Source: Dehalococcoidia bacterium (GTDB taxonomy: Bacteria; Chloroflexota; Dehalococcoidia; Bin125). Taken from it: DNA of 64,000 nt. This document shows, in pieces, positions 8,928 through 25,483 of the stretch. A model generated the notes under the pieces. It did not search any database, was not told the origin of the DNA, and was given only the letters and a program-made list of their open reading frames with translations. Both the position numbers and the translations under genes were made by a program. The DNA lies in NCBI GenBank assembly GCA_965204335.1, contig OZ241982.1, forward strand, positions 246,695-310,694. Direction: 5' to 3'. Within the stretch, counting starts at the first letter, position 1. Each line of letters begins with the position of its first letter.

Positions 8928-8946
8928 GGAGAGGTCCTTTCCCTGC

Positions 8947-9951
8947 TTAGCGCAGTTGGTACGTCGGTGGCTTCTTCCAGAGGTCGGTTGGCGGGTTCTC
9001 CTGCTGCGCCAGGATTTTCGCTCGCTGAGCTTTGTCCAGCCGCTTGCCCTGCTGGATGATCTTGCGGTTGGCCTTCTCCCTGGCCTTGTCGCGGGCGACG
9101 GTCGCCGGGTTGGGCCGCTTCTTCTGGCCGCGTGAGGCCTTGACGATGCCCGACTTCTGCAGACTCTTGAGATGGGCCTGGACGTTGCCGTCGGCGGCTC
9201 GACGGAGACGCTTGTCGATGCTGTCGCCGTAGATGTTCTCCATGATTTGCCACGACGTCTTCGGTTCGCCGTCCTGCAGTTGCTCGAGAATCTGGTCCTC
9301 GCGCATCTGACGATGGGCGACATACATCTCCAGCCGGTCGCGCGCCCTGACATCTTCGGTGTCGGTGATCAGCGGTCCGTGGCCGGGGCAGAGCACTTTG
9401 ACGTTGGGCAGCTCCAGCAGCCGGCGGAGCGAGGCCATGTAGGAGTTGACGTCGCCGACAACCGAGGTCGTGTTGCCCAGGATCGTGTCGCCGGTGAAGA
9501 GGATGCCCTCCTCCTCGATGTAGTAGCAGAGCGAATCGACGGAGTGTCCGGGGCTGGTCATCACCTGGACCCGGACTCCGCCGTCGAGGTCGATGGTGTC
9601 GCCGTCCGTGTAGGTCTTGACGCCCTCGTTGTCCCTGGGCAGCTGACGCTTGAGCAGCTTGACGCCGTTCTCGGGTACTGCAATCTCCGCCTTGAGATGC
9701 TCGCGCACGTGCTTGAGGTTGCCGGAGTGGTCAAAGTGGTGGTGCGTGATTGCGGCGACACCAATCTCGGAGTGGTCGATCGCCGCGAGGTAGCCACGCA
9801 GCATCCAGCGGAACTTGTCGATCGCCTCGCCCGAGTCGATCGTCAGCGTCTGCCCGCCGCGCTGACCGATGATGTAGATGTTGGTCGAGGTGGGGCGCAT
9901 CGGCTGGTCCTCGGGGACCGGGACCATACGCACGTTGTCGCTGATCTTCAT
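8947..9951 (-). CDS. MBL-fold metallo-hydrolase with basic C-terminal tail
   Basis: ITHHHFDHSGN metal-binding motif and GHGP; Lys/Arg-rich last 70 aa. Confidence 0.85.
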   Translation of the reverse strand: MKISDNVRMVPVPEDQPMRPTSTNIYIIGQRGGQTLTIDSGEAIDKFRWMLRGYLAAIDHSEIGVAAITHHHFDHSGNLKHVREHLKAEIAVPENGVKLLKRQLPRDNEGVKTYTDGDTIDLDGGVRVQVMTSPGHSVDSLCYYIEEEGILFTGDTILGNTTSVVGDVNSYMASLRRLLELPNVKVLCPGHGPLITDTEDVRARDRLEMYVAHRQMREDQILEQLQDGEPKTSWQIMENIYGDSIDKRLRRAADGNVQAHLKSLQKSGIVKASRGQKKRPNPATVARDKAREKANRKIIQQGKRLDKAQRAKILAQQENPPTDLWKKPPTYQLR

Positions 9952-9962
9952 GACAAGGCTCC

Positions 9963-10940
9963 CTACGTGTGGCTGCCAATGGCGATGTCGGCGACCTGCG
10001 GCGCGACGTCTCGGGCGAGGAACTCGGGTACATCGTCCCGGTCGAACATGAAGTGCTGGAACTGCACCTCGGCAACGCCCGCTTCGGCCAGCCGTCCGAG
10101 TGCGTCGACCGTTTGATCGGCGCCGCCGACCAGGCGGCCCATCGAGTTGAACTCGGTCAAGAACTCATCGAGCGGTTGTCCCGATCGGCCGAACATTCCC
10201 TGCGCAAACTCGCCGCCTGCTTCGACCAGTTCCGGCGTGCCGACGGCATGGAACATCATCATCGAGTGTTCGACCTCATCGGGATCGCGGTCGATCGCTT
10301 CACAGGCCTTGGCCATCACGTCACGCTTGTGTCCGTACGCCTCCGGCGTGAGCGACACGCAGTTCCACTCCGAGGCGTATCTGGCCGCCATCGGAATCGT
10401 GCGCTTCTCACCGCCGCCGCCAATCAGGATCGGCGGCCGTCCCGCTTCTGGATTCGGCAGGCAGTCTGCTCGATCGAGCCGGTAGTACCGGCCCTCATAA
10501 CTGGACTGTCCCGGGCTCCAGAGCGCTTTCATCATGTTGATCGCGTCCTCAAGCCGGTCGAAGCGTTCGCGGGTCGGAGGAAACGGCAGTCCGTAGGCGT
10601 CGTGCTCAGATTGATTCCAGCCGGCGCCGAGACCCATCACGAAGCGACCGCCGGAGAGCTGGTCGATCTGCGCGGCCATGCGGCCGACATCGACCGGTCG
10701 GCGGAAGGTGACCGGCGTGACCATCGGACCGAAGCGCAGGTCGGACGTCTCTTCGGCTGCCAAGACAAAGCTGAGAAAGCACTCCAGACTGTCCTGCTGG
10801 CTGCCGTCGATCGGTCCGGTGAAGTAGTGGTCGCTGCGAAAGAGCGAAGGGAAGTTGAGCCGGTCGGCGAGTTGGAGGATATGCCGCCAGCGCTCCCAGG
10901 TCAGTCCATTCTGTCCCTCGACCATGAGTCCGACGCGCAT
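9963..10940 (-). CDS. LLM-class F420-dependent oxidoreductase (Rv1855c-like)
   Basis: MRVGLMVEGQNGLTWERW...LFRSDHY...GLGAGWNQSEHDAYG. Confidence 0.85.
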   Translation of the reverse strand: MRVGLMVEGQNGLTWERWRHILQLADRLNFPSLFRSDHYFTGPIDGSQQDSLECFLSFVLAAEETSDLRFGPMVTPVTFRRPVDVGRMAAQIDQLSGGRFVMGLGAGWNQSEHDAYGLPFPPTRERFDRLEDAINMMKALWSPGQSSYEGRYYRLDRADCLPNPEAGRPPILIGGGGEKRTIPMAARYASEWNCVSLTPEAYGHKRDVMAKACEAIDRDPDEVEHSMMMFHAVGTPELVEAGGEFAQGMFGRSGQPLDEFLTEFNSMGRLVGGADQTVDALGRLAEAGVAEVQFQHFMFDRDDVPEFLARDVAPQVADIAIGSHT

Positions 10941-11018
10941 ACGATCTCCTCTCGTCGCGCCGGTCAGCGCGACGCCCGTGGTGGCATGGTAGGGCTGAAC
11001 CGGCTCCTGCCGTCCGGA

Positions 11019-12140
11019 TCAGCGGGGCAGGGCGATGCCGTCGTCGAGCACAACGACCGTGACGGGATCGTCCGGGTGCCAGACGACTTCAGTGCGCAGC
11101 CTGGTTTCGACCTCGGCGCCAGACGTCAGGCGCACTCGCACGACCTGGTCATGGCCGTAGTACTCGCTGCTGATCACGGTTGCACGCGCCGGATCGTCCG
11201 GTTCGGTGGGCTTCAGGGCGAGTTGCTCGGGTCTGAGCAGGATGTCAAACGAGTCGCCGTCGCGCTCGGCCAATGGATTGGCGAGAACGACGTAACCCAG
11301 TTCGGTCTCCGCCCCTCCCCGCGCCCGGCGGCCGGGCAGGATGTTGGCGTCGCCGACGAACGTGCCGATGAAGCGCGTTTCGGGCCGATAGTAGATGTCG
11401 TCCGGCGCACCGATCTGCTCGATCCGGCCGTCGCGCATGACGGCGACGCGGTCGGCGAGGGAGAGCGCTTCTTCGCGGTCGTGGGTGACGAATACGGCGG
11501 CGGTGTCGGCGGCCTTGAGGATGTTGCGCATCGCCAGTCGCAGGCTGGCGCGGAGGTTCTGGTCGAGGTTGCTGAACGGCTCGTCAAGCAAGACGGCGGC
11601 TGGCTCCGGCGCCAGCGCGCGCGCGAGCGCGACGCGCTGCGCCTCGCCCCCGGAGAGCTCGTGCGGGAAGCGGTCGGCGAAGCCGTCCAGGCCAACCAGT
11701 TCGAGCATCTCGCGGACGCGCGCCGGCGCCTCAACGTGCCGCAACCGGCGCAACTGCCTCGTCCACCATGCGCGGTGCCCATCGGGCAGACCGAACGCAA
11801 TGTTCTCGCCGACGCTGAGGTGTGGAAACAGCGCGAAGTCCTGCGGCACCATGCCGATCCGACGACGCTCGGGCGGTCTCCAAGTGGCGTCATCAACGAC
11901 CAGTTCACCATTGATCCGCACGGCCCCGCTGTCGGGATGTTCGAATCCGGCGAGCAGGCGCAGCGTGGTCGACTTGCCGCAGCCGCTGGGACCGAGCAGC
12001 GCCACGATCTCTCCGCGGGCGACCTCGAACGACGCCTCACGGACGGCGACGGTGTCGCCGAACGTCTTGGAGACGCTCTGCGCAATCAGCGCCGGCGTGT
12101 TGCTGGAGCGTTCAACTGCGGAGGCCACGGTCATTTCCAA
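11019..12140 (-). CDS. ABC transporter ATP-binding protein (FbpC/PotA-like importer ATPase)
   Basis: Walker A GPSGCGKST, signature LSGGEAQRVALARAL, Walker B LLDEPFS, C-terminal TOBE-like region. Confidence 0.9.
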   Translation of the reverse strand: MEMTVASAVERSSNTPALIAQSVSKTFGDTVAVREASFEVARGEIVALLGPSGCGKSTTLRLLAGFEHPDSGAVRINGELVVDDATWRPPERRRIGMVPQDFALFPHLSVGENIAFGLPDGHRAWWTRQLRRLRHVEAPARVREMLELVGLDGFADRFPHELSGGEAQRVALARALAPEPAAVLLDEPFSNLDQNLRASLRLAMRNILKAADTAAVFVTHDREEALSLADRVAVMRDGRIEQIGAPDDIYYRPETRFIGTFVGDANILPGRRARGGAETELGYVVLANPLAERDGDSFDILLRPEQLALKPTEPDDPARATVISSEYYGHDQVVRVRLTSGAEVETRLRTEVVWHPDDPVTVVVLDDGIALPR

Positions 12141-13719
12141 ACAGGATGATCATCGGCAGGGCGGCGCAACCGAGAAGCAGCAGTCCATTCGCCGCGGCGC
12201 GAGCGAAGAAGACGTCCTCCTGATGCCCCCAGAGGCTGGTTGCCAGCGTGTCGAACTCTATCGGTGCAAGCAAGAGCGTGGCCGGCAACTCCTTCATAGT
12301 GGTCAGGAAGACCAGCGCAAATCCAGCCATGACGCCGGGCGCGATCAGCGGCAAGGTCACGCTGCAGAAGGTCTGCCAGGGCGAACGGTTCAGGGAGCGA
12401 GACGCCTCTTCCAGCCCCGGCTGGACTCGGACCAGCGACGTCCGCAGCCCGGAGATTGCCTGGGGTAAGAACAACACCGCGTAGGCGAAGACCAGCGTGA
12501 TGATCGTCTGGTACATGCCGGGCGTCACCCGCAGCGTGAAGAAGATCAGCGCGAACGCGACCACGACGCCGGGCAGGGCGTAACCGACGTACGAAGCGCG
12601 ATCGATGATGCGCGCCAGGATCCCCGGGCGGCGAACCACGACAATCGCAATCGGGATCGAGATGGCGACGGTCGCGGCTCCGGCCAACGCAGAGGCGTAG
12701 ACGGAATTGAGCGCTTCGCTCCAGATATCGGGGAAGGTCTCTCCGCCCTGTAGTCCGACCGACAGCCAGTGAAACAGCACCGCGACCGGCACGAATAGAG
12801 CGACGCCGCAGACAACGCTCAGTCCGATCAATGCGGGCCAGCGATAGCGACGCAGACTGACGAGTCTTGGCATGCGCGCGGCGCCGCTGCCGAGTCGGTG
12901 GTAGCGGGCATTGCGACGCTGAGACCAATCGATGAGCAGGACGACGGCCACGAGGGCGACGAGTATCAGACACAGCACGGCAATGCTCGAGCGGTCGAAT
13001 GACGTTCCAATCCTGACGTAGATGGCGCGCGTGAACGTGTCGAAGCGCATCATCGAGACGGCGCCAAAGTCGGAGATCACATACAGCGCCACCAACAGGC
13101 TGCCGGTGGCGAGCGGGATCCGGAGCTGGGGCACCGTGACGCGCCAGAATGCACCCCAGGCAGTCTGGCCCAGGGACCTGGCGGCCTCCTCGATCCCGGG
13201 ATCCAGGTCTCTGAGGCCGGCCCGGATGACGATCAGCAGATAAGGAAACGTGAACAGCGTCAGCGTGAGCCAGGCGCCGAAGAATCCGTAGATCTCGGGA
13301 ATGCTCTCGACGCCCAGCGGACCCAGCAGGTCCTGCAGTGACCCGTGTGGGCCGAGCGCAATGATGAACGCGAAGGCGCCCACGTAGGAAGGAATCGCCA
13401 GCGGGATGATCGTGACTGTTCGCCAGAGCCGCGCGAACGGCAGATCGGTCCGTTCGGTGAGATACGCGATCGGCAAGGCGAGTGCGGCTGAAGCGGCGGT
13501 CACGGCGACCGTCAGCGCAGCCGTGTTCAGCAACAGCCGGGCTGTTCCGTCGGTGAGGACCTTCGACCAGGTCTCTGCATCGGCGTCGGCCGCTCGAACG
13601 ACCAGGTAAACCAGGGGAATGCAGGCGGCCGCCGCGCCGGCCAGGGCGAGGATCCAGATCGCCGGGATATTGACCCGAAGTCGAGCCGGAACTGCACCGG
13701 CGCCGCCGAGAAGCGTCAT
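12112..13719 (-). CDS. iron-type ABC transporter permease (duplicated two-domain, FbpB-like)
   Basis: 535 aa with two internally repeated permease halves. Overlaps the ATPase start. Confidence 0.9.
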   Translation of the reverse strand: MTLLGGAGAVPARLRVNIPAIWILALAGAAAACIPLVYLVVRAADADAETWSKVLTDGTARLLLNTAALTVAVTAASAALALPIAYLTERTDLPFARLWRTVTIIPLAIPSYVGAFAFIIALGPHGSLQDLLGPLGVESIPEIYGFFGAWLTLTLFTFPYLLIVIRAGLRDLDPGIEEAARSLGQTAWGAFWRVTVPQLRIPLATGSLLVALYVISDFGAVSMMRFDTFTRAIYVRIGTSFDRSSIAVLCLILVALVAVVLLIDWSQRRNARYHRLGSGAARMPRLVSLRRYRWPALIGLSVVCGVALFVPVAVLFHWLSVGLQGGETFPDIWSEALNSVYASALAGAATVAISIPIAIVVVRRPGILARIIDRASYVGYALPGVVVAFALIFFTLRVTPGMYQTIITLVFAYAVLFLPQAISGLRTSLVRVQPGLEEASRSLNRSPWQTFCSVTLPLIAPGVMAGFALVFLTTMKELPATLLLAPIEFDTLATSLWGHQEDVFFARAAANGLLLLGCAALPMIILFGNDRGLRS

Positions 13720-13820
13720 GTTCGGAGGTTATCGGAGTATTTCATCAGCAAAACCAAGAATCTCTGATCGAGTACCTCCGCCCGCATCAATTGAGCCGTT
13801 GCGCGATGCTCCAGACATGA

Positions 13821-13852
13821 CGTTCCCGGACGCTTGCGAGCGTCCGGGAACG
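13821..13852 (-). terminator. 13-bp perfect hairpin between binding-protein and permease genes (possible intra-operon attenuator)
   Basis: cgttcccggacgc-ttgcga-gcgtccgggaacg sits in a 262-nt gap. No clear U-tract on the minus strand. Confidence 0.35.
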
Positions 13853-13982
13853 ATTGTTGTGGCGTACTTGCCACGAAGACCGTTTGGATGGACCGCTGCC
13901 GCCGCTCCCATGGCGAAGCGGCGACAGCGGCCATGCCATCCAGAGCGGGGATGGGCATGATGGCTGCGCCTGCCGGCGCGGG

Positions 13983-15350
13983 CTATCTGAGTGCGCCAAC
14001 CTTCCGCAACAGCTCAAGGGTGCCCTCGAGGTCCGACAGGGTCGTCAGCGCGAGCGACGGTGGGCTGAGCTCGTCGAGCGGACGCAGCCGCGGATTCGCC
14101 TCGATGCCTGAGGCGACGGGATACTCGTTGGTCTGATCGCGGAAGTAGGTCTGACCTTCCTCCGAGAGCAGGAAACGAATGAAGCGCAGCGCGTTGACCC
14201 GGTTGTTCGCGCCCTCCAGCATCGCCACACCGGCGACGTTGACCAGCGCGCCCGCTTCACCGGCGTCGGTGAAGTGGTTGGCCGCCGGCCAGTCGGCGTC
14301 GAAGCGGAACAGGTAGTAGTGGTTGACCAGCCCGATGTCGAGCTCGCCGTCCCCAACCGCCTGAACCTGCGGAGTGTTCTTGGGGTAGACCTCGACTTCA
14401 TTGGCGATCATCCCGCGGAGCCATTCCTCGGTCCTCGCTTCGCCGTGGATCTGGCGCATGGCGGTGACAAAGGCCTGGAAGCTGCCGTTGGTCGGGGCCC
14501 AGCCGATTCGACCCTTCCATTCGGGATTGACCAGGTCGAAGACCGAGTCGGGCGGATTGGGCACGCGCTCCGGCGAGATGATCAGGACGCGGGCTCGGCC
14601 GGAAGTGGCGATCCAGCGACCGTCATCATCCTGAAACTTCTCGTCGACCATCGCGGTGATGTCAGCGGGCAGTTGGGCGGCAAGCCCCTCTTCGGAGAGG
14701 AATGAAAGGGCGCCGGCATCCTGGCCGTAGTAGATGTCCGCCGGCGAGCGGGCGCCTTCCTCGGAGATCGCGATCGCCATTGCGGCCGTGTTGCCGTAGC
14801 GAACCTTGACGTCGATCCCCGTCTGCTCCTCGAACCGATCGATCAGGGCGCCCACCAGCGACTCGCCCCGGCCGGAGTAGATGACCAGGTCACCGGGATC
14901 GTCGGGAATGGCAACCGCCGCCACCCTCGACTGGAGCCAGCGATCGACTGCGGTACTGGCCGGGAAGATCTGCCCGCTCAGGACGTCAACGCCGTTGGCG
15001 CGGACGCCGAATTCGGTGTCGCCGTCGGCCTGGCGGCGCGCGGTCACCTGCAGTTGAACGCCGAGCTTCTCGACGACCGAGCTGACGAGCAGACGTCCAA
15101 CCGCTGCATCGACCGGGAAGAATCGGCGCGTTGGTGTCAGGACTTCGCCGTCCGCTCGGATTGCAAACTCGATTCGACCGTCCTCATGCAGTTGGGCTCG
15201 AACACGAACGTCAATGCTGGGCGCATCTTGTGCACTTGTCGTTCCAATGGCGGCGAACACACCGGCAAGTAACGCCGCGATAGTCAGCAGCGCGACCATG
15301 TACCGGGGCAGGCGGAGCTTGTCCGCCCCTGGCTGGGATCTTGGCATCAA
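13983..15350 (-). CDS. iron(III)-type ABC substrate-binding protein with extra N-terminal tandem-repeat module
   Basis: Core LVIYSGRGESLVGALIDRFEEQTGIDVKVRYG... is paralogous to 15521..16567. It is preceded by a signal anchor and two roughly 50-aa repeats (residues about 46-146). Confidence 0.85.
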   Translation of the reverse strand: MMPRSQPGADKLRLPRYMVALLTIAALLAGVFAAIGTTSAQDAPSIDVRVRAQLHEDGRIEFAIRADGEVLTPTRRFFPVDAAVGRLLVSSVVEKLGVQLQVTARRQADGDTEFGVRANGVDVLSGQIFPASTAVDRWLQSRVAAVAIPDDPGDLVIYSGRGESLVGALIDRFEEQTGIDVKVRYGNTAAMAIAISEEGARSPADIYYGQDAGALSFLSEEGLAAQLPADITAMVDEKFQDDDGRWIATSGRARVLIISPERVPNPPDSVFDLVNPEWKGRIGWAPTNGSFQAFVTAMRQIHGEARTEEWLRGMIANEVEVYPKNTPQVQAVGDGELDIGLVNHYYLFRFDADWPAANHFTDAGEAGALVNVAGVAMLEGANNRVNALRFIRFLLSEEGQTYFRDQTNEYPVASGIEANPRLRPLDELSPPSLALTTLSDLEGTLELLRKVGALR

Positions 15351-15415
15351 TCACTCTCTTTCCCGGAATCAATCCTCTGTGTGCTCACGGACGCTGTTTC
15401 CGGGCACTCGCGTAG

Positions 15416-15443
15416 TTTATACACAAGATTGCAAAATATGCAA
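15416..15443 (-). promoter_or_regulatory. candidate sigma70-type promoter with overlapping palindrome
   Basis: Minus strand reads TTGCAT-16 nt-TATAAA in an AT-rich island. TTGCAAAATATGCAA (15429..15443) is a TTGCA-N5-TGCAA inverted repeat over the -35. Confidence 0.45.
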
Positions 15444-15520
15444 GGAAGGTGAACAACGATCCGGCCATTCCTCGATCTTCCGGCCGGCCGGGACGGTCAA
15501 CGGAGATCGATGAGGCCGGG

Positions 15521-16567
15521 TCAGGGAATGACGCCCGCGTGTTGCAGCAGCTCGAGCGTGCCTGCCAGGTCCGACAGCGACGTCAGTGCAAGGGAGGGAG
15601 GATCGAGCTCCGACAGCGGGATCAGTTCCCGTCTGGGCTCGACGCCCGACGCGACCGGGTACTCGCTGGTCTGATCGCGGAAGTAGGTTTGGCCCTCTTC
15701 GCTCAACAGGAAGCGAACGAACTTCAGCGCGTTCTCGGCGTTGCGCGACGACTTGAGCACCGCGACACCTGCCACGTTGACCAGGCCGCCGGCTGCGCCG
15801 GGATCCGTGAAGTGATTGACCGCCGGAAACTCGGGATCATCCGCGAGGAAGCGGAACAGGTAGTAGTGGTTGACGAGGCCGATGTCGATCTCTCCGGCCC
15901 CGACGGCCTGGACGATCGGCGAGTTCCTCGGAAACTCGACGATATCGTTGGCCAGCATGCTGCGGAGCCACTGCTCGGTGGCATCGTCGCCGTGGATCTG
16001 ACGCATGGCCGTGATGAACGCCTGGAAGCTGGCGTTGGTCGGCGCCCATCCGACGCGGCCGCGCCATTCCTCGTCAACGAGATCGAACACGCTGTCCGGT
16101 GGATTGGGCACCCGATCCTTCGAGACGATCAAGACGCGCGCTCGTCCCGAGGTGGCTACCCAGTAACCGGAACCGTCGGCCAGCTCTTCCGGAACGCCGG
16201 CCACGATGTCGTCGGGCAGTCGGCTCAACACGTCGCCCTCTGCGAGCGCGGCGAGGGCGCCGGCGTCCTGCGAGTAGAAGACATCCGCCCGCGAGCGGTC
16301 GCCTTCTTCGAGGATCGCCGAGGCGAGTTCGGCGGTGCCGGCGTAGCGGATTCGAACGTTGATGCCGCTGACCTCTTCAAATCGTTCGATCAGCGGGCCG
16401 GCCAGCGACTCGCCGCGGCCCGAGTAAATCGTCAACTCGCCGTTCGCCGACTGTGTCGAGGAGGGCTGCTCCAGCTCATCCGAGGCGCAGGCGACCGCCG
16501 CGATGGACGTCAGTGCGATCAGCGCGAGCCAGAACGGAATCACGAACCCGGCGCGAACGTCAGACAT
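15521..16567 (-). CDS. iron(III)-type ABC substrate-binding lipoprotein (paralog without N-terminal repeats)
   Basis: Start at ATG 16567 (GGAGAGGAAG upstream) gives MSDVRAGFVIPFWLALIALTSIAAVAC, which is lipobox-like. Core LTIYSGRGESLAGPLIERFEEVSGINVRIRYAG. Confidence 0.85.
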   Translation of the reverse strand: MSDVRAGFVIPFWLALIALTSIAAVACASDELEQPSSTQSANGELTIYSGRGESLAGPLIERFEEVSGINVRIRYAGTAELASAILEEGDRSRADVFYSQDAGALAALAEGDVLSRLPDDIVAGVPEELADGSGYWVATSGRARVLIVSKDRVPNPPDSVFDLVDEEWRGRVGWAPTNASFQAFITAMRQIHGDDATEQWLRSMLANDIVEFPRNSPIVQAVGAGEIDIGLVNHYYLFRFLADDPEFPAVNHFTDPGAAGGLVNVAGVAVLKSSRNAENALKFVRFLLSEEGQTYFRDQTSEYPVASGVEPRRELIPLSELDPPSLALTSLSDLAGTLELLQHAGVIP

Positions 16568-16604
16568 CGGCAGCGGCTTCCTCTCCGATCGGCCCGGATC
16601 AGCA

Positions 16605-16656
16605 TGACCAATCATCGACACAGCGATGATTGGTCAAAGTTGCACTAACTGCAACT
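16605..16656 (-). promoter_or_regulatory. two adjacent palindromes upstream of the second binding-protein gene
   Basis: tgaccaatcatcg-acacag-cgatgattggtca (16605..16636, 13-bp arms) is followed by agttgca-ctaac-tgcaact (16638..16656, core TTGCA-N5-TGCAA). Confidence 0.4.
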
Positions 16657-16688
16657 TATCGAATAGGAGAGAACCGGATGGTTGAGGG

Positions 16689-16991
16689 CTACCAGGAACT
16701 CTTGCGGACCCCGGGGAGCAGTCCCAGCGAGGCCATCTCGCGGAAGGTGATTCGGCTGAGCCCGAACTTGCGCATGTAGGCGCGAGGGCGACCGGTTACG
16801 GCGCAGCGGTTCTTGATTCGCGTCGGCGAGCTGTTGCGGGGCAGCGCCTGAAGCTGGAACTGGATGTTCTGCTTCTCGCGAGGGTTGTTGGACTCTTTGA
16901 GCTGCTGCTTGAGCGCCGCGCGGCGGTTCTGGTACTTGGCGTGCATCTTGCGGCGCTTGAGGTCGCGGTGAACGTTCGAGGTTCGGGCCAT
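16689..16991 (-). CDS. rpsN: 30S ribosomal protein S14, long non-zinc-ribbon (C-minus) form
   Basis: 100 aa. [16 protein letters not shown]...[43 protein letters not shown]. Only one Cys, so no CxxC pairs. Confidence 0.95.
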
Positions 16992-17069
16992 GCGTTGTCC
17001 AGTGGTTGAGTCCAGTGGTTGGGTCTTCAGGTTGACTCTATGAGCGTAGTGGCAATTTGACGGCTGGGG

Positions 17070-17531
17070 CTAGTCGCGGCGCTTGCGTTTGTTGATCTTG
17101 CGTCCGCTCTGTTCTTCGAGGCGGCCGAGGGCTCGGCCCTTGTCGGGGTGCGGATCCTTGCGTTCGCCGTAGATCGTGATGCCCTCGTGTCCTTCGGGGA
17201 GATACTCGGTGATGGGAAGACCTTCCTCATCGCAGAAGAGCAGTCAATGGCAGTATTTCCAGCGCTGCATCTCCTCGCAGGGGCAGATCCAGGTCGATTC
17301 CTTGACCTCCTCGGCCTTGTCTTCGTAGAAATTGCAGGGACAGAGCGGGCGGCCATAGTCGTCGATGTGCTTGGCCAGGCCGATCACCAGGAACTCGGTG
17401 ATGTCTTCCTGCGGATGGAGGTACGATCCGCTCTTCTCAGCGAAGTTGCGGGCGAACTTCCACATCTTGTTGAGGTTTTTTTCCGAGGCCTGCTGGCGAT
17501 CGTCGTCGCTGACGTGGTCAACATCCGCCAT
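17070..17531 (-). CDS. ferredoxin-thioredoxin reductase catalytic subunit-like protein with in-frame TGA (candidate selenocysteine) at 17244..17246
   Basis: ...GRPLCPCNFYEDKAEEVKESTWICPCEEMQRWKYCH-TGA-LLFCDEEGLPITEY... The frame is open for 57 codons past the TGA, to TAG at 17070. The CPC-x16-CPC-x8-CH[TGA] spacing equals the family CHC signature. Confidence 0.7.
17211..17231 (-). promoter_or_regulatory. SECIS-like mRNA hairpin downstream of the in-frame UGA
   Basis: GAUG-A-GGAA[GGUC]UUCC-CAUC: 4 bp, a 1-nt 5' bulge, 4 bp and a GGUC tetraloop. It starts 12 nt after the UGA. Confidence 0.55.
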
Positions 17532-17609
17532 CGCTCACCACCGCTCTAAACATGTCTGACTTGCGCCGTCGGATCCACTGTACGCGCTGCGCTCGGCGCT
17601 CGACTCGGC

Positions 17610-18494
17610 CTAGTTGTTGGCGTTGTCGCCGCCTTGTCGAAAGAAGTCCTCGAGGTCGGCGATCAGCGCGTCGGCGCTGGGCAATTCGCCTTCCGGCCGG
17701 GCTTCCGGCTGCGGCGAGGGACTCGCCTCTTCGAGCCGAGCGACGTAGTCGCGCAATTCATCGTTGTCGCGCAGCGCTTCCTCGAGTTGCGTGTGGAAGC
17801 GATGGATGCCGCGCTCGAGCGGATCGAGGTCGAAGCTCAGGCCGGTCATGTCGCTGACGACCCGCAGCAGGGCCTGCGCGCCGACCGGATTGGTGATTCC
17901 CGGCAGGTAGTGAGGCACCGATGCCCAGAGCGAGACGCCGGCCACGCCTCGCCGGCGGCAGTGGTCGTGGAACACGCCCACGATGCCCGACGGTCCCTCG
18001 AAGCGGGACGGGTGCATGTTGTAGCGCTGGGCGAGCTCGGAGTTGTTCGCCGAGCCGCGGACATGGACCGGCTGCGTGTGCGGAGTACCGGCCGCCACCG
18101 CGCCGAGCGAGAGGATCAGCTTCGCGCCGATCTCGTCGACCAACTCGGAGAGCGCCGCCATGTACCGCTTCCAGCGGTAATGCGGCTCGATCCCGATTCC
18201 GACCACGATGTCGCGTCCGCTGGATGAGGGACGCAGGTGGACGAACTCGGTCGCCGGCCAGGCGATGAAGCGCTCGCCCTCGCGATAGCGGGCCATCGGG
18301 CGAGCCTCCGTGAAGTCGTAGAATTCCTCGGGGTCGATCGTCGCGAAGGGCTTCGCGCCCAACTGCTGGATCAGGTACTGCGCGGCGGTGGACGCCGATT
18401 CTCCGGCGTCGTTCCAGCCTTCCCAGGCGACGATCAGCACCGGGTCGGTGAGATTGGGCAGTTCTTCGATATTGAGGTCAGGTGAGGTGGTCAT
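17610..18494 (-). CDS. PAC2 (proteasome assembly chaperone 2-like) family protein
   Basis: LIVAWEGWNDAGESAS...FEGPSGIVGV...WASVPHY motifs typical of actinobacterial-type PAC2 proteins. Confidence 0.8.
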   Translation of the reverse strand: MTTSPDLNIEELPNLTDPVLIVAWEGWNDAGESASTAAQYLIQQLGAKPFATIDPEEFYDFTEARPMARYREGERFIAWPATEFVHLRPSSSGRDIVVGIGIEPHYRWKRYMAALSELVDEIGAKLILSLGAVAAGTPHTQPVHVRGSANNSELAQRYNMHPSRFEGPSGIVGVFHDHCRRRGVAGVSLWASVPHYLPGITNPVGAQALLRVVSDMTGLSFDLDPLERGIHRFHTQLEEALRDNDELRDYVARLEEASPSPQPEARPEGELPSADALIADLEDFFRQGGDNANN

Positions 18495-19359
18495 GGACGA
18501 AGTTTACTCCAGCGCCGGTCGCTCGACGGCAGCGGAACTGACACAGGCCTGGGCCGCACGGGTCGCGGCCAACCGGGAACAGGCAGAGCGATTGCGAGAG
18601 GAGAGCGGGGGCGGCGATCACTACCGCCCACTGGCGTCGATGTTCCGAGCCGACCCCCACCGCACCGACGACGACGTGCTGGATGCGCTGCTGGCAATCG
18701 CCAGGTCTTCGGACACCTGGATCGACGTGGGCGCCGGCGCGGGGCGCTTCTCGCTGCCGCTGGCGCTGTATGTAGAGTCGGTGGTCGCCATCGAGCCGTC
18801 GGGCGCGATGCGGGCAGAGTTCGCCAACCTGCAGATCGAGCACGGCATCACCAACATCGACCTGCGCGATGGCCGTTGGCCGACGGACGATCCCGTCATC
18901 ACGGACATCGGGGACGTGGCGTTGATCTCGCACGTGGCTTACGACATCGAGCCGATTGGCGGCTTCCTCGACACGCTGGAGCGCTCGGCGCGGCGCGAGT
19001 GCGTCGCGATCCTGTTCGACCATTCGCCCAGTGCGATGTTCTGGCAGGTCTGGCCCGCAATCCACGGCGAGGAACAGGTCCAGCTTCCGGGAGGCAACGA
19101 GTTCGTCGCATTGCTCAAGGCTCGCGGCGCGAGCGTGGAGGCGTCCGTCATTCAACCGCGCGGCGACCGACAGCGATTCGTCTTCGACGCGCCTGAGGCG
19201 GCCATCGAGTGGGCGCGCAGACGATTATGGTTAGCGGAGAACTCGGCACGGCTGCCGCTCTTACGCGAGGCGGTGGCTGAGCTTCTGATCGAACGGGACG
19301 GCGGATGGACGCTGCCCGATCAACCAAGTCAACTGCTGATTCGCTGGAGGACATCATGA
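18493..19359 (+). CDS. class I SAM-dependent methyltransferase
   Basis: WIDVGAGAGRFSLPLA motif I. ATG 18493 overlaps the divergent PAC2 start (CATG). Confidence 0.75.
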   Translation: MDEVYSSAGRSTAAELTQAWAARVAANREQAERLREESGGGDHYRPLASMFRADPHRTDDDVLDALLAIARSSDTWIDVGAGAGRFSLPLALYVESVVAIEPSGAMRAEFANLQIEHGITNIDLRDGRWPTDDPVITDIGDVALISHVAYDIEPIGGFLDTLERSARRECVAILFDHSPSAMFWQVWPAIHGEEQVQLPGGNEFVALLKARGASVEASVIQPRGDRQRFVFDAPEAAIEWARRRLWLAENSARLPLLREAVAELLIERDGGWTLPDQPSQLLIRWRTS

Positions 19360-19946
19360 ACAGGGTCACACCCCTCGAGACACCGGAAGTGCTGGAAGTC
19401 GCCCCGCACCTGCAGGCGCTGATTGACCGCGGCGGCACGATTCCGACGTCGCTGCACGTACTCGCCCGGCGACCGGCGGTCCTCAACGCCTTCGGCCCCT
19501 TCTTCAACTCGATCATGACCGACGGCGGCGTGCCCGACGGGCTCAAGCAACTGATCGCCCACGTGGTTTCGCGCTCGGCGGGCTGTCTCTACTGCCAAGC
19601 CCACACCGGACACTTCGCTCACACGCTGGCCGGAGAGACCTTTGATCGGGTCGAGGCGGTCTGGGCCTTCGAGACCTCCGAGCTGTTCAGCGACGCCGAG
19701 CGCGCCGCCCTGCGCCTCGCGCGCGACTCGGGGATCCAGCCCAACTCGGCCACGGATGAGCACTTCGACGAACTGAAGCGGTACTGGTCCGAGTCCGAGA
19801 TCGTTGAAATCGTCAGCGTGATCTCGATGTTCGGGTTCCTCAACCGCTTCAACGACACGCTCGCCAATGAATTGGAACCCGACGCCGTCCAGTTCTCGGA
19901 CGCTCACCTGGCCCAGGCCGGCTGGACCGTCGGCAAGCACGGCTGA
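19356..19946 (+). CDS. carboxymuconolactone decarboxylase (AhpD-like) family protein
   Basis: SAGCLYCQAHTGH CxxC-H motif. ATGA overlap with the upstream stop; GGAGG 5 nt upstream. Confidence 0.85.
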   Translation: MNRVTPLETPEVLEVAPHLQALIDRGGTIPTSLHVLARRPAVLNAFGPFFNSIMTDGGVPDGLKQLIAHVVSRSAGCLYCQAHTGHFAHTLAGETFDRVEAVWAFETSELFSDAERAALRLARDSGIQPNSATDEHFDELKRYWSESEIVEIVSVISMFGFLNRFNDTLANELEPDAVQFSDAHLAQAGWTVGKHG

Positions 19947-19957
19947 ATCGAACTTCG

Positions 19958-20854
19958 CTAGCGGGGCTTGTCCTCAAGCGGGTTGTCGACCCCGCGGAAG
20001 AACGCGCCGCGATAGATTTTCGTGTCGCCGCGGACGCGCTCTTCCCACTCCTGATCGGTCATCGCTTCGCGCAGCCGGATCGTCTGGATCGTGTCCTCTC
20101 CGATCGGCCAGCGCATGGGCAGACGCTGCTCGAGCTCGACGATGTCGGCGACGGCCGTCGCGACGGAGCGCGATCCGGGTCTCGTCGCGGCGCGCGTGCG
20201 GAATGCCTTCAGCGCGTGGTCGGCCGACTCCTGGTAGGGCGAGCGGCCTTCTCGCACGGCGGCGGCGACATCCAGGTTGGTGGTCTGCCAGTCTGACGCG
20301 TACATGCCCGGCTCGAGGATGGTGACGTCGATGTTCCAGCGGGAGACCTCGTAGCGCAAGGCTTCCGACATCGCCTCGACCGCCCACTTGGACGCCGCGT
20401 AGAGTCCCATCAACGGCGCGACGATTCGTCCGGCCAGCGACGAGACGTTGACGACCTTGCCGTGCCGTTGCTCGCGCATCGACGGCAACACCGCCTGGGC
20501 CATCCGGATCTGTCCAAGGAAGTTCGTGTCCATCTGCCGCATGACTTCTTCGTCCGACATGTCCTCAACCGGCCCGTAGAGCCCGTACCCGGCGTTGTTG
20601 AACAACGCGTCTACGCGCCCGAAGCGCTTGATCCCCGCCTCGACCGCCTCCTCGATCGAGTTGCGGTCGGTGACGTCGCAGCGGCTAATCTCGACCAGGT
20701 CCGAATCGATGCCGGCGAGGTTGGGGCCGTCACGGTCGGGGTTGCGCATCGTGGCGATCACCGGATGGCCGCGCATCGTCAGTTCCTCGGCGGCGGCGAG
20801 TCCGAAGCCTCGCGATGCGCCCGTGATCAGTGTGACCTGCCGCTCAAGTACCAT
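19958..20854 (-). CDS. SDR family oxidoreductase
   Basis: TGASRGFG, NNAG, and YAASKWAV catalytic Y-x3-K. Start at ATG 20854 with a GGAGG RBS. Confidence 0.9.
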   Translation of the reverse strand: MVLERQVTLITGASRGFGLAAAEELTMRGHPVIATMRNPDRDGPNLAGIDSDLVEISRCDVTDRNSIEEAVEAGIKRFGRVDALFNNAGYGLYGPVEDMSDEEVMRQMDTNFLGQIRMAQAVLPSMREQRHGKVVNVSSLAGRIVAPLMGLYAASKWAVEAMSEALRYEVSRWNIDVTILEPGMYASDWQTTNLDVAAAVREGRSPYQESADHALKAFRTRAATRPGSRSVATAVADIVELEQRLPMRWPIGEDTIQTIRLREAMTDQEWEERVRGDTKIYRGAFFRGVDNPLEDKPR

Positions 20855-20934
20855 GGTCCTACCTCCGCCTTGCGGATCGCCGTCTTCGCAGATGCTAGTG
20901 GCGTGCTGCAGGCAGGGGTCTAGCAAGAACCTGA

Positions 20935-21963
20935 GTGGACTGGCTGACGGACCCCTGGCACTTCGAGTTCATGCAGCGCGCGCTCCTGGCCGGGGTGATC
21001 GTGTCAATCGCCGCGGGCATGGTTGGCGTGTTCGTGGTCCTGCGCGGCCTGGCGTTCCTGGGGGACGCCGTGGCGCATACGCAGCTCGCCGGAGCGGCGG
21101 TGGCGCTGGTGCTCGGCGGCAGCGCCGTGTTCATCACGCTCGGCGCAGGGGTGGCGGCAGTACTGACGGCGCTCGGCGTGGCGCTCCTGACCCTGCGCGG
21201 ACGCCTGCGCGAGGACACGGCGATTGGGATCATGTTCGCCGGGTTCTTCGCTCTCGGCGTATTGCTGATCTCGCGTCAGCGCACGTTCGCGATCGACCTG
21301 GGCTCGCTGTTGGTCGGTCACATCCTGGGTGCTTCGTGGACCGACCTGCTAGTGATGGCCGTGTTGACGGTTGTGGTCGTGGCCCTGGTCCTGGCGTTCC
21401 TGCCCGAGCTCCGATTTTCCGCCTATGACCCGGAGGTGGCTTCCGTTTCCGGTGTTCCGGTCAACGTCATGCAGGTCGGCTTGCTGGTCCTGATCGCGAT
21501 GGCGACCGTGGTAGCATTTCGCCTGGTCGGCGTCATCCTCGCGGTGGCGATGCTGGTCACGCCCGCGGCAGCCTCCGTCCTGCTCACGCGCCGGTTATCG
21601 ATGATGATGATCATGGCCATGCTGGTCGGGATCGTGTCCACCGTGGTCGGGCTGTACTCCTCGTTTCACCTCGACCTTGCGGCCGGGCCGTCGATCGTGC
21701 TCACCGCCGTGATTCTGATGGGGCTCTCGTTCGTCCTGAGTCCTCGAGGCTTGCGAGAGGTGCTGCCCAGCTTCGCGGGAGCGGTCGACGAGGCCGGCGG
21801 GTATCCGCAGACCGGTTGGCGAAGAACGGCCAGGGTGTGCTGGGGCGCATGCTGCCATGTCGGCGACGCGTCCTGGGGCGCGTGTTGCAGAGTTGGCGAC
21901 GTCTGCTGGGGCGCGTGTTGCCGGGTTGGATCGCGCCTCTCGCTGCGCGGGCGGGCCGGCTAG
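20935..21963 (+). CDS. metal (Zn/Mn-type) ABC transporter permease with Cys-rich repeat tail
   Basis: ZnuB/MntB-like: FMQRALLAGVIVSIAAGMVGVFVVLRGLAFLGDAVAH. About 60 extra C-terminal residues contain 3x WGACC. Confidence 0.85.
   Translation: MDWLTDPWHFEFMQRALLAGVIVSIAAGMVGVFVVLRGLAFLGDAVAHTQLAGAAVALVLGGSAVFITLGAGVAAVLTALGVALLTLRGRLREDTAIGIMFAGFFALGVLLISRQRTFAIDLGSLLVGHILGASWTDLLVMAVLTVVVVALVLAFLPELRFSAYDPEVASVSGVPVNVMQVGLLVLIAMATVVAFRLVGVILAVAMLVTPAAASVLLTRRLSMMMIMAMLVGIVSTVVGLYSSFHLDLAAGPSIVLTAVILMGLSFVLSPRGLREVLPSFAGAVDEAGGYPQTGWRRTARVCWGACCHVGDASWGACCRVGDVCWGACCRVGSRLSLRGRAG
21838..21930 (+). repeat. 33-bp tandem repeat, about 2.8 copies, in frame within the permease 3' end
   Basis: tgctggggcgcatgctgccatgtcggcgacgcg / tcctggggcgcgtgttgcagagttggcgacgtc / tgctggggcgcgtgttgccgggttgga... 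Confidence 0.85.
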
Positions 21964-22514
21964 AGGGCGGGCTTGAACAGCTGCTGCCTGTACCAGCGCA
22001 GTTCTTCGATCGACTCGCGGATGTCGTCAAGCGCCCGATGTCGTTCCTGCTTGACGAACGGCTCCATCTCGGGATACCAGCGCAGCGCCAGCTCCTTGAT
22101 CGTCGAGACATCGACGATTCGGTAGCTGAGCCACTCGATCAGCCGGGGCATCTCGCCGTAGAGGAACCGTCGGTCCTGGTGGACGGAGTTGCCGCACAGC
22201 GGCGACTTCCCCTCGACGGTCCAGTCCCGGACGAACTCGAGGATCTGTTCCTCCGCCTGTCCAATCGTCACGTCCGATGCCTTGACCCGCTTGATCAAGC
22301 CTGAGCCGTGATGGGTTTGCCGATTCCAGGCGTTCATCACGCTCAGCTCTGCGTCCGTCCGGTGTATGGCGAAGTCCGGGCCATCGGCGATGATATTCAG
22401 TTCGCCGTCCGTGATCAGCACCGCGGCTTCAATGATCACGTCACGGGCGGGATCGAGCCCGGTCATTTCGAGGTCGATCCAGACCAGGTTGTCCTTCGAC
22501 GGCGTTGGCGACAT
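21960..22514 (-). CDS. orn: oligoribonuclease
   Basis: LVWIDLEMTGLDP...GNSVHQDRRFL...HRALDDIRESIEELRWY DEDDh exonuclease motifs. Confidence 0.95.
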   Translation of the reverse strand: MSPTPSKDNLVWIDLEMTGLDPARDVIIEAAVLITDGELNIIADGPDFAIHRTDAELSVMNAWNRQTHHGSGLIKRVKASDVTIGQAEEQILEFVRDWTVEGKSPLCGNSVHQDRRFLYGEMPRLIEWLSYRIVDVSTIKELALRWYPEMEPFVKQERHRALDDIRESIEELRWYRQQLFKPAL

Positions 22515-22624
22515 GAACTCAGCCTACCCGTCGCCCCATCCGTCCCCGTATGGAGTACGGGGCGGGCTGCGTTGTGACACCCGCCCCATCGAGCGGGGGT
22601 GGGAAGAAACGGGGTCTGGGACGG

Positions 22625-24946
22625 CTACTGGTCGGCGATGGCCCGTGCCGTGCCGAGCAGGATGCCGAGATAGGTCGGGTTGTCCTCGGTCGGCTGCGAC
22701 CAGATGATGCCCCGTTCGGCGCCGGTCTCCGAAGCGACGGTGTCGAGCAGTGAGGAATCGAACTGCGGCTCGTGGAAGATCGTCTCTACGCCTTCGTGCT
22801 CGACCAGTTCGATCAGGTCGGTCAACGCGCCGGCGCTGATGCCCTGCTCCGGCCCCTCGACGACGAAGCCGGCGATTTCGAGTCCGTAGCGGCGGGCGAA
22901 GTAGCCGAACGCATCGTGGAAGGTGACCAGCAACCGGTGCTCCTCGGGCAGGTCCGCAAGCAGCTCACGAATCTCGGCGTCGGCCGCGTCGATCTCAGCG
23001 AGGTAGAGGTCGAGACGGTCGGTGAAGACGTCGGCTGCGTCGGGCATCAGGTGGGAAAGCTCCTCAGCGATCGCCGAGATGGCTGCCGAGGCCATGTCGG
23101 TGTCGAACCAGTAGTGCGGGTCTTCCGAGCCGTGGGCATGGCCGTGGTGACCGTGATCGTCTTCCCCATCGTGCATTTCCTCGTCGTGGCCGGCGTGAGG
23201 CGCACCCTCGGCGTCAACGATGCCGACGAAAGCCAGCGACGTCGGCGCGCCACCGACGTGCCACTCCTCGACGACCTCGAGCGAGTGGCCGTCGATCATC
23301 AGTACGTGGCCGTCGGACGGATCGGTGATGAAGAGGTGTTCGCCGAGGGCGATCATGCGCGGCGAACCGGCCTCGCTGGCTCCAACCATCTCGGCGCTGT
23401 CCAGCATCTCGCCATCGTGGGCGTCGAGGGCGTAGAGCACGGCGTCTGCGCCGAGCAGGTAGAGCGTCTCGCCGTGGTTGCCAATGACGGCGGCCAACGT
23501 CTCGTCCTCGAACACGCGCTCCATCGAGCCCCCGGCGACGTCAATTAGCCAGATGCCATCGGACTGCCAGCCGCCCTGGCCGCGGTAGGAGGCGCTGCCG
23601 AAGAAATGGTCGAGATGGTCGTGTCCGTAGACCGAACCGATGCGCGCGGCTTCGTGCATCTCGGGCGAATTCGGGATCCACTCGTGCTCGTACTCGCCGT
23701 CGTGGGCGCGCAGGAAGAGCACGCCGCCGACGCAGCCAAACGCCGCCCCGTCAGCGTTGTGCGACTCGCCGTGCATGCCCGGGCAGCTACCGTTGCTGGC
23801 GTCGTAGACGACGTTCCCGTCGAAGTCCCAGACCTCGACGCCCACCGGCAGAGCGTCGTTCGGGTCGTCGGGATTCCTGGTGGTGACGACAACGTGGTCA
23901 TCGCCGACCACCAGCGCCGCTCCGTGCTGTGGCCCGGCCTCGAGCACAATCGGTTCGTAGTCGCCTCGAGCGTTCGAGAGCGCCTCTTCATTGATCAACA
24001 TCACGCGACCGCTGGCGTCCGCGAAGATGGCCGTCCAGCCGTGGCTGTTGACGTAGTGGACGGGCGCTTCTTCAGCGATCGCCAATGAATGGCGGGATAC
24101 CGGCTCCGTGAACAGATCGTCGTGATCGCCGTGCTCGACGAGGAAGACTCCGCCGTCGAAGATGTGAATCCGGTCATCGCCGCTCCGCGGTCCGCGGGCG
24201 AGGACGATGGCGTATCGGTGAGTGGGACTGGGATGCACGGTTGCGTTGGCGGCTGCGACGGCGAATGGGCCGAAGTCCACCTTTTCGGTCATCAGGTCGA
24301 CGACTGAGATGACGGCCTCGGCTCCGTCCGCGACCAGCAGGCGGCCGGCTGGCGCGGCTTCGCGTTCGTCCCCGTGCTCGAGTGCCATCGCGCTGAACGG
24401 CGCCAACTCGAAGCCGGCGCTCTCGATCGCCTCGGCGAGGTCGAGAATGTGCTCGGCGTTCTCCAGGATCGCGTCCTGGTAGGCCGCTTCCAGACCGGCG
24501 CCATTGATGATGACCAGGTCGGCGTCGACGATTGCGCGGATATCGGCGACGCTCAACTCCAGCGTGTGCGCGTCGGCGCCGGCGGGCACCAACGCTCTGA
24601 CCATGGCGCGGTCTCCGGCGACCTGCCGAACCCAGTCGGCGATCACCTGGGTGGAGACGACGATACTCAGCGGCTCGGCCGACGGCGCCTGTCGCTGAGT
24701 CTGCTGAGCTTCCTGAGACTGCTGAGCTTGCTGTTCCTGCTGCTCTTGCGCGCTGCTCGACCGTGCCGCGGAGGTTGACCGGCCCTGCTGTTGCTGGACC
24801 TGCTGATCCTGCCGATCCTGCTGCTCCGCCGTCGTTTGCTGTTGCTGCTGGGACTGATCGTCGTCGGAGCAGCCAGCAATGAGCGCCGCGGCCAGGGACA
24901 GCGCAATCACGGCGCCGAGCGCCAACCTGAAGAACCGGGACATCAA
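22625..24946 (-). CDS. ZnuA/TroA-type metal-binding lipoprotein interrupted by a roughly 420-aa His-rich beta-propeller-like insertion
   Basis: Lipobox LIAGC, then a Q-rich linker. N-lobe ...PAGADAHTLELS...; residues about 190-608 are inserted; then HGHHGHAHGSEDPHYWFD and TFHDAFGYFARRYGL C-lobe motifs. Confidence 0.8.
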   Translation of the reverse strand: MMSRFFRLALGAVIALSLAAALIAGCSDDDQSQQQQQTTAEQQDRQDQQVQQQQGRSTSAARSSSAQEQQEQQAQQSQEAQQTQRQAPSAEPLSIVVSTQVIADWVRQVAGDRAMVRALVPAGADAHTLELSVADIRAIVDADLVIINGAGLEAAYQDAILENAEHILDLAEAIESAGFELAPFSAMALEHGDEREAAPAGRLLVADGAEAVISVVDLMTEKVDFGPFAVAAANATVHPSPTHRYAIVLARGPRSGDDRIHIFDGGVFLVEHGDHDDLFTEPVSRHSLAIAEEAPVHYVNSHGWTAIFADASGRVMLINEEALSNARGDYEPIVLEAGPQHGAALVVGDDHVVVTTRNPDDPNDALPVGVEVWDFDGNVVYDASNGSCPGMHGESHNADGAAFGCVGGVLFLRAHDGEYEHEWIPNSPEMHEAARIGSVYGHDHLDHFFGSASYRGQGGWQSDGIWLIDVAGGSMERVFEDETLAAVIGNHGETLYLLGADAVLYALDAHDGEMLDSAEMVGASEAGSPRMIALGEHLFITDPSDGHVLMIDGHSLEVVEEWHVGGAPTSLAFVGIVDAEGAPHAGHDEEMHDGEDDHGHHGHAHGSEDPHYWFDTDMASAAISAIAEELSHLMPDAADVFTDRLDLYLAEIDAADAEIRELLADLPEEHRLLVTFHDAFGYFARRYGLEIAGFVVEGPEQGISAGALTDLIELVEHEGVETIFHEPQFDSSLLDTVASETGAERGIIWSQPTEDNPTYLGILLGTARAIADQ

Positions 24947-24976
24947 GCAATCGATCTAGGCGGACCGTATGTGCTG

Positions 24977-25450: not shown

Positions 25451-25483
25451 GTTCTTCGCTTTCGACTGTTCTGCTCGGTGCGC

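Follow-up and report, generated by a model that had tools for sequence, protein, structure and literature searches.

A candidate single-selenocysteine subfamily of ferredoxin-thioredoxin reductase-like proteins in Chloroflexota

In enzymes of the ferredoxin-thioredoxin reductase (FTR) type, disulfide cleavage is carried out by a [4Fe-4S] cluster, to which one of the two sulfurs becomes bound. In the catalytic subunit (FTRc) from Synechocystis, Cys55, Cys74, Cys76 and Cys85 are said to ligate the cluster, while Cys57 and Cys87 reportedly form the redox-active disulfide, Cys87 binding the cluster in the one-electron intermediate. Besides the cyanobacterial and chloroplast enzymes (PDB entries 1dj7, 2pu9 and 7bzk), FTR-like enzymes that consist of a single polypeptide and dispense with a plant-type variable subunit are found in non-photosynthetic prokaryotes, as in the FDR of Methanosarcina acetivorans (4tpu) and the glutaredoxin/FDR fusion of Desulfotalea psychrophila (7pwe). 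FTR homologues were also recognised as a new selenoprotein family among Global Ocean Sampling (GOS) reads, with selenocysteine (Sec) at both redox positions in the pattern CPU...CIU (Zhang and Gladyshev 2008, PMC2398784). This double-Sec family, represented in NCBI by NF041072 and by the GOS reads JCVI_READ_1093012271142 and JCVI_READ_841845, is the only FTR form listed in reviews of 2022 and 2026. Here we describe a locus at positions 17070..17531, on the minus strand of a 64-kb window (the whole stretch of DNA analysed, of 65.6% GC, from contig OZ241982.1 of a Dehalococcoidia bacterium), which very probably is a single, unbroken gene encoding a selenoprotein of 153 residues in the FTRc superfamily, with an internal UGA read as Sec.

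What is predicted here is of a known kind, namely the replacement by Sec of a redox Cys in an FTR-type enzyme, accompanied by a canonical bacterial selenocysteine insertion sequence (SECIS). New are a distinct subfamily with a single Sec, found widely among Chloroflexota, the invariant core of its SECIS, the SECIS fossils retained in Cys revertants, a Cys four residues beyond the Sec (the +4 Cys), and the systematic mis-annotation of the gene. With NF041072 the window protein shares the FTR catalytic-subunit superfamily and the use of Sec for a redox Cys, the second Sec of that family (C-I-U) aligning with C-H-U here, and both were predicted from an in-frame TGA, Cys homologues and a SECIS. 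The two are nevertheless only 30% identical over 86 residues, and the window protein reaches 43 bits against the NF041072 model, below its cut-off of 160 bits. The window gene has a single in-frame TGA and its first motif is CPC (TGC); because the first redox residue stays Cys, the active pair here would be Cys-Sec rather than Sec-Sec. The double-Sec family also has a different motif spacing, is without the 57-residue C-terminal tail described below, and is known from two reads, whereas the clade described here is present in at least 80 GTDB species genomes.

The cyanobacterial and chloroplast subunits have in common with the window protein the pattern CPC-x16-CPC-x8-CH(C/U), about 42% sequence identity, the cluster ligands and the adjacent His, but they have Cys87 where Sec is predicted here, and the long conserved tail is a feature of the window protein. 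In further contrast, no variable-subunit gene (FeThRed_A) was seen among the Pfam-scanned ORFs (open reading frames) of the window or the listed neighbours, and the host belongs to non-photosynthetic, Dehalococcoidia-type Chloroflexota. The Methanosarcina and Desulfotalea enzymes were both detected by sequence and by fold, but they are distant (23-25% identity, TM 0.40-0.41), all-Cys, and equipped with a rubredoxin or glutaredoxin domain, neither of which the window protein has. Literature searches found no paper describing the single-Sec Chloroflexota clade, although BSepDB may hold it under its FTR family.

The reading frame and its relation to FTR catalytic subunits

The gene is made up as follows.

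17070..17531 (-): predicted selenoprotein gene of 153 sense codons, with Sec at codon 96, plus a TAG stop; assigned from its translation and from matches to PF02943 and to PDB FTR chains
17247..17531 (-): N-terminal 95 codons, taken by gene callers for the whole protein; includes Cys64, Cys66, Cys83, Cys85, Cys94 and His95
17244..17246 (-): in-frame TGA, predicted to specify Sec as residue 96, in the column homologous to Cys87 of Synechocystis FTRc
17073..17243 (-): 57 codons past the Sec, covering the last part of the FTR core (LLFC) and the conserved tail LPITEYLPEGHEG..IYG..KDP.PDKGRALGRLEE
17232..17234 (-): Cys codon four residues past the Sec (U-L-L-F-C), found together with Sec throughout the family
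17070..17072 (-): true stop codon TAG, read from the sequence

A minus-strand ATG at 17531 starts a 95-codon ORF (17244..17531) that ends ...LCPCNFYEDKAEEVKESTWICPCEEMQRWKYCH and then meets TGA. Re-translation agreed with the initial annotation of this DNA, made from the letters alone, in giving 95 residues ending ...WICPCEEMQRWKYCH with TGA at 17244..17246, a frame beyond it that stays open for 57 codons (LLFCDEEGLPITEYLPEGHEGITIYGERKDPHPDKGRALGRLEEQSGRKINKRKRRD) to the TAG at 17070..17072, and the motif spacing CPC-x16-CPC-x8-CH-TGA. Profile and structure-chain searches were made with the read-through protein, Cys being put in for the stop. It scored 88.4 bits against the Pfam family FeThRed_B (PF02943; cut-off 22), the 95-residue part on its own giving 75.2 bits, and phmmer aligned it without gaps to the FTR chains 7bzk_A (E 5e-25) and 1dj7_A (E 1e-21). 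The cluster and disulfide motif CPC-x16-CPC-x8-CHC is present, with its last C replaced by U. Residues 64, 66, 83, 85, 94 and 96 fall on residues 55, 57, 74, 76, 85 and 87 of Synechocystis FTR (1dj7), and His95 on His86; because residue 96 aligns on residue 87, the TGA lies exactly at the Cys87 position, and the ungapped alignment thereby bears out the earlier proposal that it replaces the last, redox-active Cys of the FTR signature. Cys64, Cys83, Cys85 and Cys94 are the predicted ligands of the cluster, and Cys66 is the predicted surface nucleophile. The second cluster motif (17283..17291 (-)) is CPC in the subclade of the window and in classical FTRs, and CAC in most other Chloroflexota members, in Sec and Cys forms alike.

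A structural model was obtained with AlphaFold2 for the Cys homologue P0002, which is 75% identical to the window protein, with predicted local distance difference test (pLDDT) 88.8 and predicted template-modelling score (pTM) 0.81. Foldseek matched this P0002 model to the FTR catalytic chain 7bzk_A with probability 1.00 and a root-mean-square deviation of 1.0 A over 89 residues. About 55 residues at the C-terminus of P0002 form a tail modelled at pLDDT 89-96, to which nothing in the FTR chains of the PDB corresponds, and on this model the 57-residue tail appears to be an ordered, family-specific extension.

The gene is flanked by a PAC2-family gene and the gene for ribosomal protein S14, an arrangement conserved among relatives, and no thioredoxin gene lies near it. 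The nearest public record, contig_1 of ENA entry ERZ25068616, is 96.4% identical over 20.3 kb (window 7244..27522) with 34 gap openings; in this sibling strain the first 95 residues of the FTR-like protein are identical to those of the window.

Conservation of the TGA codon and of the frame beyond it

Relatives were sought in two ways. Species-representative genomes of GTDB were scanned with peptide patterns that excluded the Sec column, which yielded 547 relatives, the best 80 loci being examined; and metagenomes of the Joint Genome Institute (JGI) were scanned with a Cys-type protein as query, 80 loci again being examined. The comparative set comprised 143 distinct sequences with TGA at the Sec column (Sec forms) and 11 with a Cys codon there (Cys forms). 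In all 80 of the best GTDB loci the Sec column was TGA, followed by an open and conserved frame of 52-82 codons. These loci lay in metagenome-assembled genomes (MAGs) of Dehalococcoidia and other Chloroflexota, and included closed chromosomes, sponge-associated bins, soil 'Chloroflexia' and one MAG labelled Thermoflexus. The JGI loci, found with the Cys-type query, had TGA in 68 cases, TGC in 10 and TGT in two, so that both scans together gave 148 loci with TGA and 12 with TGC or TGT. The habitats of the clade are marine, sponge-associated, soil and hot-spring, and its distribution is a further sign that bacteria of the Dehalococcoidia type rely heavily on selenium.

A protein search returned homologues of about 150 residues that are 60-75% identical to the read-through protein over 95-97% of its length and have Cys at the TGA column. 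In these Cys homologues the core runs on in frame into the tail motif LPITEYLPEGHEGREIYG..KDP.PDKGRALGRLEE. Among the other matches of that search were 95-residue 'proteins', 91-96% identical, which end at the TGA column, and one entry (P0003) with W at that column, a residue that appears there because the TGA was translated with genetic code 4 at gene calling. Close and distant orthologues keep the TGA and the homologues with TGC or TGT are full length, which answers the question, raised with the initial annotation, of what occupies this column elsewhere.

The 57 residues downstream are likewise conserved in orthologues. Over the first 45 codons past the TGA none of the 143 Sec forms has a stop, while the other two frames are stopped in 63 and 119 of them, and the median ratio of nonsynonymous to synonymous substitution rates (dN/dS) relative to the window is 0.18 downstream of the TGA and 0.15 upstream, as expected of purifying selection on both parts. 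These figures bear directly on the possibility that a nonsense mutation has broken the gene at codon 96 and left a pseudogene with a decaying downstream frame. Gene callers and public records do end the protein at residue 95, and a product so truncated would be without the catalytic residue. Against this, the same TGA occurs in at least 143 distinct sequences whose pairwise identity falls as low as 63%, the 45 codons beyond it are free of stops and evolve much as the upstream part does, and a decaying remnant would not be expected to hold the synonymous sites of a hairpin invariant, as is found below; the pseudogene is in practice refuted, and we regard it as extremely unlikely.

An error of sequencing or assembly, the true codon being TGC or TGT, might also be considered, TGA being a single base away from either. 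Dozens of assemblies, however, show the TGA form independently of one another, and they differ in project and technology, with Tara, JGI, sponge bins and closed MAGs from long reads among them; and TGA is always paired with the SECIS core, which true TGC and TGT forms are without, barring one locus (L125). The chance of such an error we hold to be negligible. The conserved TGA, the open frame beyond it and the dN/dS values exclude a strain-specific nonsense mutation along with pseudogene and sequencing error.

It is also conceivable that termination at the UGA is itself functional, with the 95-residue FTR fragment as product and the downstream peptide either separate or unmade. Some truncated product is to be expected in any case, in that Sec insertion competes with release factor 2 (RF2) (PMC4513850). 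But the fragment would be without both the Cys87-equivalent and the conserved tail, no conserved start codon or ribosome-binding site is found past the UGA, and the tail, which in Cys homologues is joined in frame to the core, is under selection that matches that on the core. Functional termination is very unlikely to account for the gene.

Neither the hairpin nor the open frame would suffice by itself: a loose scan for an in-frame TGA with a hairpin gave 43 matches in the window, nearly all in non-coding frames. Each feature alone does not exceed chance, and it is the comparative evidence that lifts the finding far above it.

All the public records found are 95-residue truncations, annotated as 'ferredoxin--nitrite reductase' (MCY4618455.1, MDE2896544.1, MCY3568885.1) or 'FTR catalytic chain', and in the ENA entry P0003 (L003 675..1133) the TGA is read as Trp. 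Since the records are truncated, and since NF041072, the sole curated NCBIfam model for an FTR selenoprotein, misses the family, the gene is presumably called wrongly in many Chloroflexota genomes, whose selenoproteomes are thereby counted too low.

The putative SECIS hairpin and the decoding of UGA

The hairpin and its core are laid out as follows.

17211..17231 (-): putative SECIS hairpin GAUG-A-GGAA[GGUC]UUCC-CAUC, with eight pairs and a single bulged A, beginning 12 nt past the UGA
17215..17226 (-): SECIS core GGAAGGUCUUCC, four base pairs of stem closed by the loop GGUC (17219..17222)
17215..17226 (-): position of the same core in the reading frame, codons +7 to +9 (GAA GGT CTT) plus positions 1 and 2 of a Pro codon

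The hairpin had been placed at 17211..17231, 12 nt past the UGA, with its loop starting at position 25 when the U of the UGA is counted as 1. Both placements hold, and RNAfold recovers the fold. That it acts as a SECIS, as was also proposed, gains support from comparison: all 143 distinct Sec forms have the core GGAAGGTCTTCC without change, whereas in the Cys forms it is degenerate. Codons +7, +8 and +9 are GAA, GGT and CTT in every Sec form, with zero synonymous variation, although at the other Gly and Leu columns checked in Sec-form genes GGT makes up 4-12% of codons and CTT at most 4%. The 11 Cys forms have GAG or GAA, then GGC, GGG or GGT, then CTG, CTA or CTC. The core 12-mer occurs once in the window, where none is expected, and provides a simple marker for finding the gene.

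Beyond the core the stem varies while keeping its pairs. The hairpin folds in all 25 distinct 21-nt variants found among Sec forms, with the core and one to four further pairs (-4.2 to -11.6 kcal/mol), and is lost in 10 of the 11 Cys forms, the exception being L125, a recent Sec-to-Cys convert. Compensatory changes convert GAU..AUC to GAC..GUC (L059, L073, L140) or to AAU..AUU (L003), UCG..AUC to CCG..GUC (L061, L079, L086, L126, L161), and GAG..CCC to NCG..CCG, the codon before GAA going from GAG to UCG, GCG or CCG as the third base of the Pro codon goes from C to G. Across the 25 variants 85-86.5% of cells are paired, three pairs are changed on both sides, and the covariation score was reached by none of 500 shuffles.

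The hairpin of E. coli fdhF likewise has a short upper stem, a GGUC loop and a single 5' bulge, and lies about 20 nt past the UGA. The element here differs in having GGAA/UUCC as its stem, a loop that begins 3 nt further on, and a bulge that is A or U, or shifted, among orthologues. Bacterial SECIS elements in general have a stem of 6-8 bp and a conserved loop G some 20 nt past the UGA (PMC4605307), a description that is fitted by the interrupted 8-bp stem of the window and its loop G at +25/+26, about 21-22 nt past the UGA. From the structure of the gene, its homology to FTRs and the conservation of TGA, downstream frame and hairpin, with hairpin and TGA linked across the sequences compared, we infer that Sec is inserted at this codon.

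If that is so, the host must decode Sec, and the evidence on this point comes from related contigs and genomes. A tRNA-Sec was identified by ARAGORN and by Rfam model RF01852 (71-73 bits) within about 2.1 kb of a TGA-form gene on three loci belonging to at least two sublineages, at these positions.

L086 823..920 (-), L123 94..190 (-) and L160 1..97 (-): tRNA-Sec, by ARAGORN and RF01852

According to BSepDB, two Dehalococcoidia MAGs with 49 and 46 selenoprotein genes are in the bacterial top ten (PMC13326102), and one of the two belongs to the same UUID-named series of MAGs as many loci examined here. Support for Sec decoding is in consequence at the level of the lineage only. Two candidates for SelB were tried and rejected. 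The EF-Tu-type GTPase at 28981..30735, the sole such GTPase in the window, has a GTP-eEF1A_C domain and is CysN-like, and a 625-residue ORF adjoining the tRNA-Sec of L086 proved to encode a formyltransferase. A tblastn search of all retrieved loci with E. coli SelA, SelB and SelD queries had the CysN-like GTPase as its sole match. The only tRNA in the window is a tRNA-Ala.

Recoding of the UGA other than as Sec would require either an alternative genetic code (Trp or Gly) or near-cognate read-through as Trp or Cys, the hairpin merely acting as a stimulant. In its favour, the code 4 caller behind P0003 does give W at this codon, no sel genes were seen in the 64-kb window, and hairpins past stop codons can stimulate read-through in other systems. 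The genetic code here is nevertheless taken to be standard, because TGA ends 21 of the 55 predicted genes in a window of such GC content; the catalytic column is strictly conserved and is occupied in homologues by Cys, with no instance of Trp or Gly; in its position, in the conserved G of its GGUC loop and in its bulged stem the hairpin matches a canonical SECIS; and tRNA-Sec is found on contigs with the TGA form, in a lineage documented to be rich in selenoproteins. We consider non-Sec recoding unlikely, and decoding as Sec the reading to be preferred.

Several results weigh against that preference. Neither selA, selB, selD nor selC was found in the 64-kb window, in which about 48 ORFs were Pfam-scanned for the three protein genes. 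No credible second selenoprotein gene emerged from scans of the window for coding ORFs split by TGA, gene starts bounded by TGA, or TGA with a hairpin, the thioredoxin-fold, FmdB-type and AhpD-type genes of the window all being Cys forms. The lower stem of the hairpin is imperfect in many orthologues, with a non-standard outermost pair in 11 of the 25 variants. The fold energy of a 71-nt segment is unremarkable (z = +0.86 against shuffles) and, not being significant, was not taken as evidence. An Rfam search of 17150..17300, at E values up to 10, returned no SECIS model, only chance matches to miRNA and snoRNA families. Finally, the cluster, electron donor and substrate of the enzyme are predictions by homology to solved FTRs, as is the Fe-Se intermediate discussed below.

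Two of the Cys-form genes deserve mention in their own right. One, at 37827..38216 (-), encodes a zinc-ribbon protein of FmdB type whose tail is rich in His, Asp and Gly, and the other, at 33464..33853 (-), a glutaredoxin-like protein with a CGDC motif; both families have Sec members elsewhere. A formate-dehydrogenase-like molybdopterin oxidoreductase (998 residues, with 2Fe-2S and 4Fe-4S domains) adjoins a NuoF-like flavoprotein (43297..46293 (-) and 46107..48320 (-)) and, since it contains no in-frame TGA, appears to be a non-Sec form of a family that is most often a selenoprotein.

Sec/Cys exchange, proposed catalysis and other features of the window

Two of the Cys forms are closer to the Sec forms than to the other Cys forms. 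L125 (FTR match 1501..1983) has TGC together with an intact SECIS hairpin, and L155 (FTR match 712..1152) has TGC with a half-decayed hairpin, in which the core shows two synonymous changes (GGC, CTC). This is the pattern to be expected, judging from the sequences, when Cys replaces Sec and the SECIS then decays, and a neighbour-joining tree of the family needs at least four switches between Sec and Cys.

The residue four codons past the Sec appears to change in step with it. It is Cys in 139 of the 143 Sec forms (TGC in 95, TGT in 44), the exceptions being Val in L123, L129, L134 and L160; among the 11 Cys forms it is Val in nine and Cys in L125 and L155, both of which have remnants of a SECIS. 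Because TGC and TGT are both used, selection looks to act on the amino acid, and this Cys may be a third redox residue that has co-evolved with the Sec.

A mechanism can be proposed on the model of the characterised FTRs. The hairpin, as a SECIS, would recruit SelB-GTP-Sec-tRNASec to a ribosome pausing on the UGA, where it would compete with RF2, and Sec would be inserted at codon 96. In the folded protein Cys64, Cys83, Cys85 and Cys94 would hold the [4Fe-4S] cluster, beside which a Cys66-Sec96 selenenylsulfide would take the place of the Cys57-Cys87 disulfide of Synechocystis FTR. The S-Se bond would be broken by a first electron, supplied by a donor of ferredoxin type, upon which the Sec96 selenolate would attach to a cluster iron and Cys66 would attack the substrate disulfide; a second electron would then free Sec96 to resolve the mixed disulfide. 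The sulfur that binds the cluster would in this way be replaced by selenium while its partner Cys is kept. Natural Cys and Sec orthologues are 80-85% identical, and for this reason they could offer a ready-made comparison for the role of selenium at an Fe-S site.

It is tempting to combine these elements into a single account, in which the single-Sec form is ancestral and dominant in a Chloroflexota-wide FTR-like clade, the Cys forms are repeated reversions that retain SECIS fossils, selenium bonds to a cluster iron in the one-electron intermediate, and the +4 Cys has co-evolved as a third redox residue, able to rescue or tune the selenenylsulfide. Taken jointly, these propositions are tentative, and we think it rather doubtful that all of them will hold; but were they to prove correct, the enzyme would present a natural Fe-S/Se catalytic site new to biochemical study.

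The remaining observations concern other parts of the window. A c-di-AMP riboswitch (RF00379, 87 bits) at 58321..58481 (+) is oriented into the 3' end of an enoyl-CoA hydratase gene (58714..59529 (-)) that is well supported and convergent with it. The only long plus-strand ORF behind it, at 58525..59652 (+), has no Pfam match and is antisense to the hydratase gene. The target of the riboswitch could be a small ORF, antisense control, or a SRAP gene 1.15 kb further on. Luciferase-like monooxygenases are encoded by three genes in a row beside an ABC transporter, at 6730..10940 (-), and by one more gene at 49640..50653 (+), a set that we take to fit the lifestyle of SAR202-type Dehalococcoidia.

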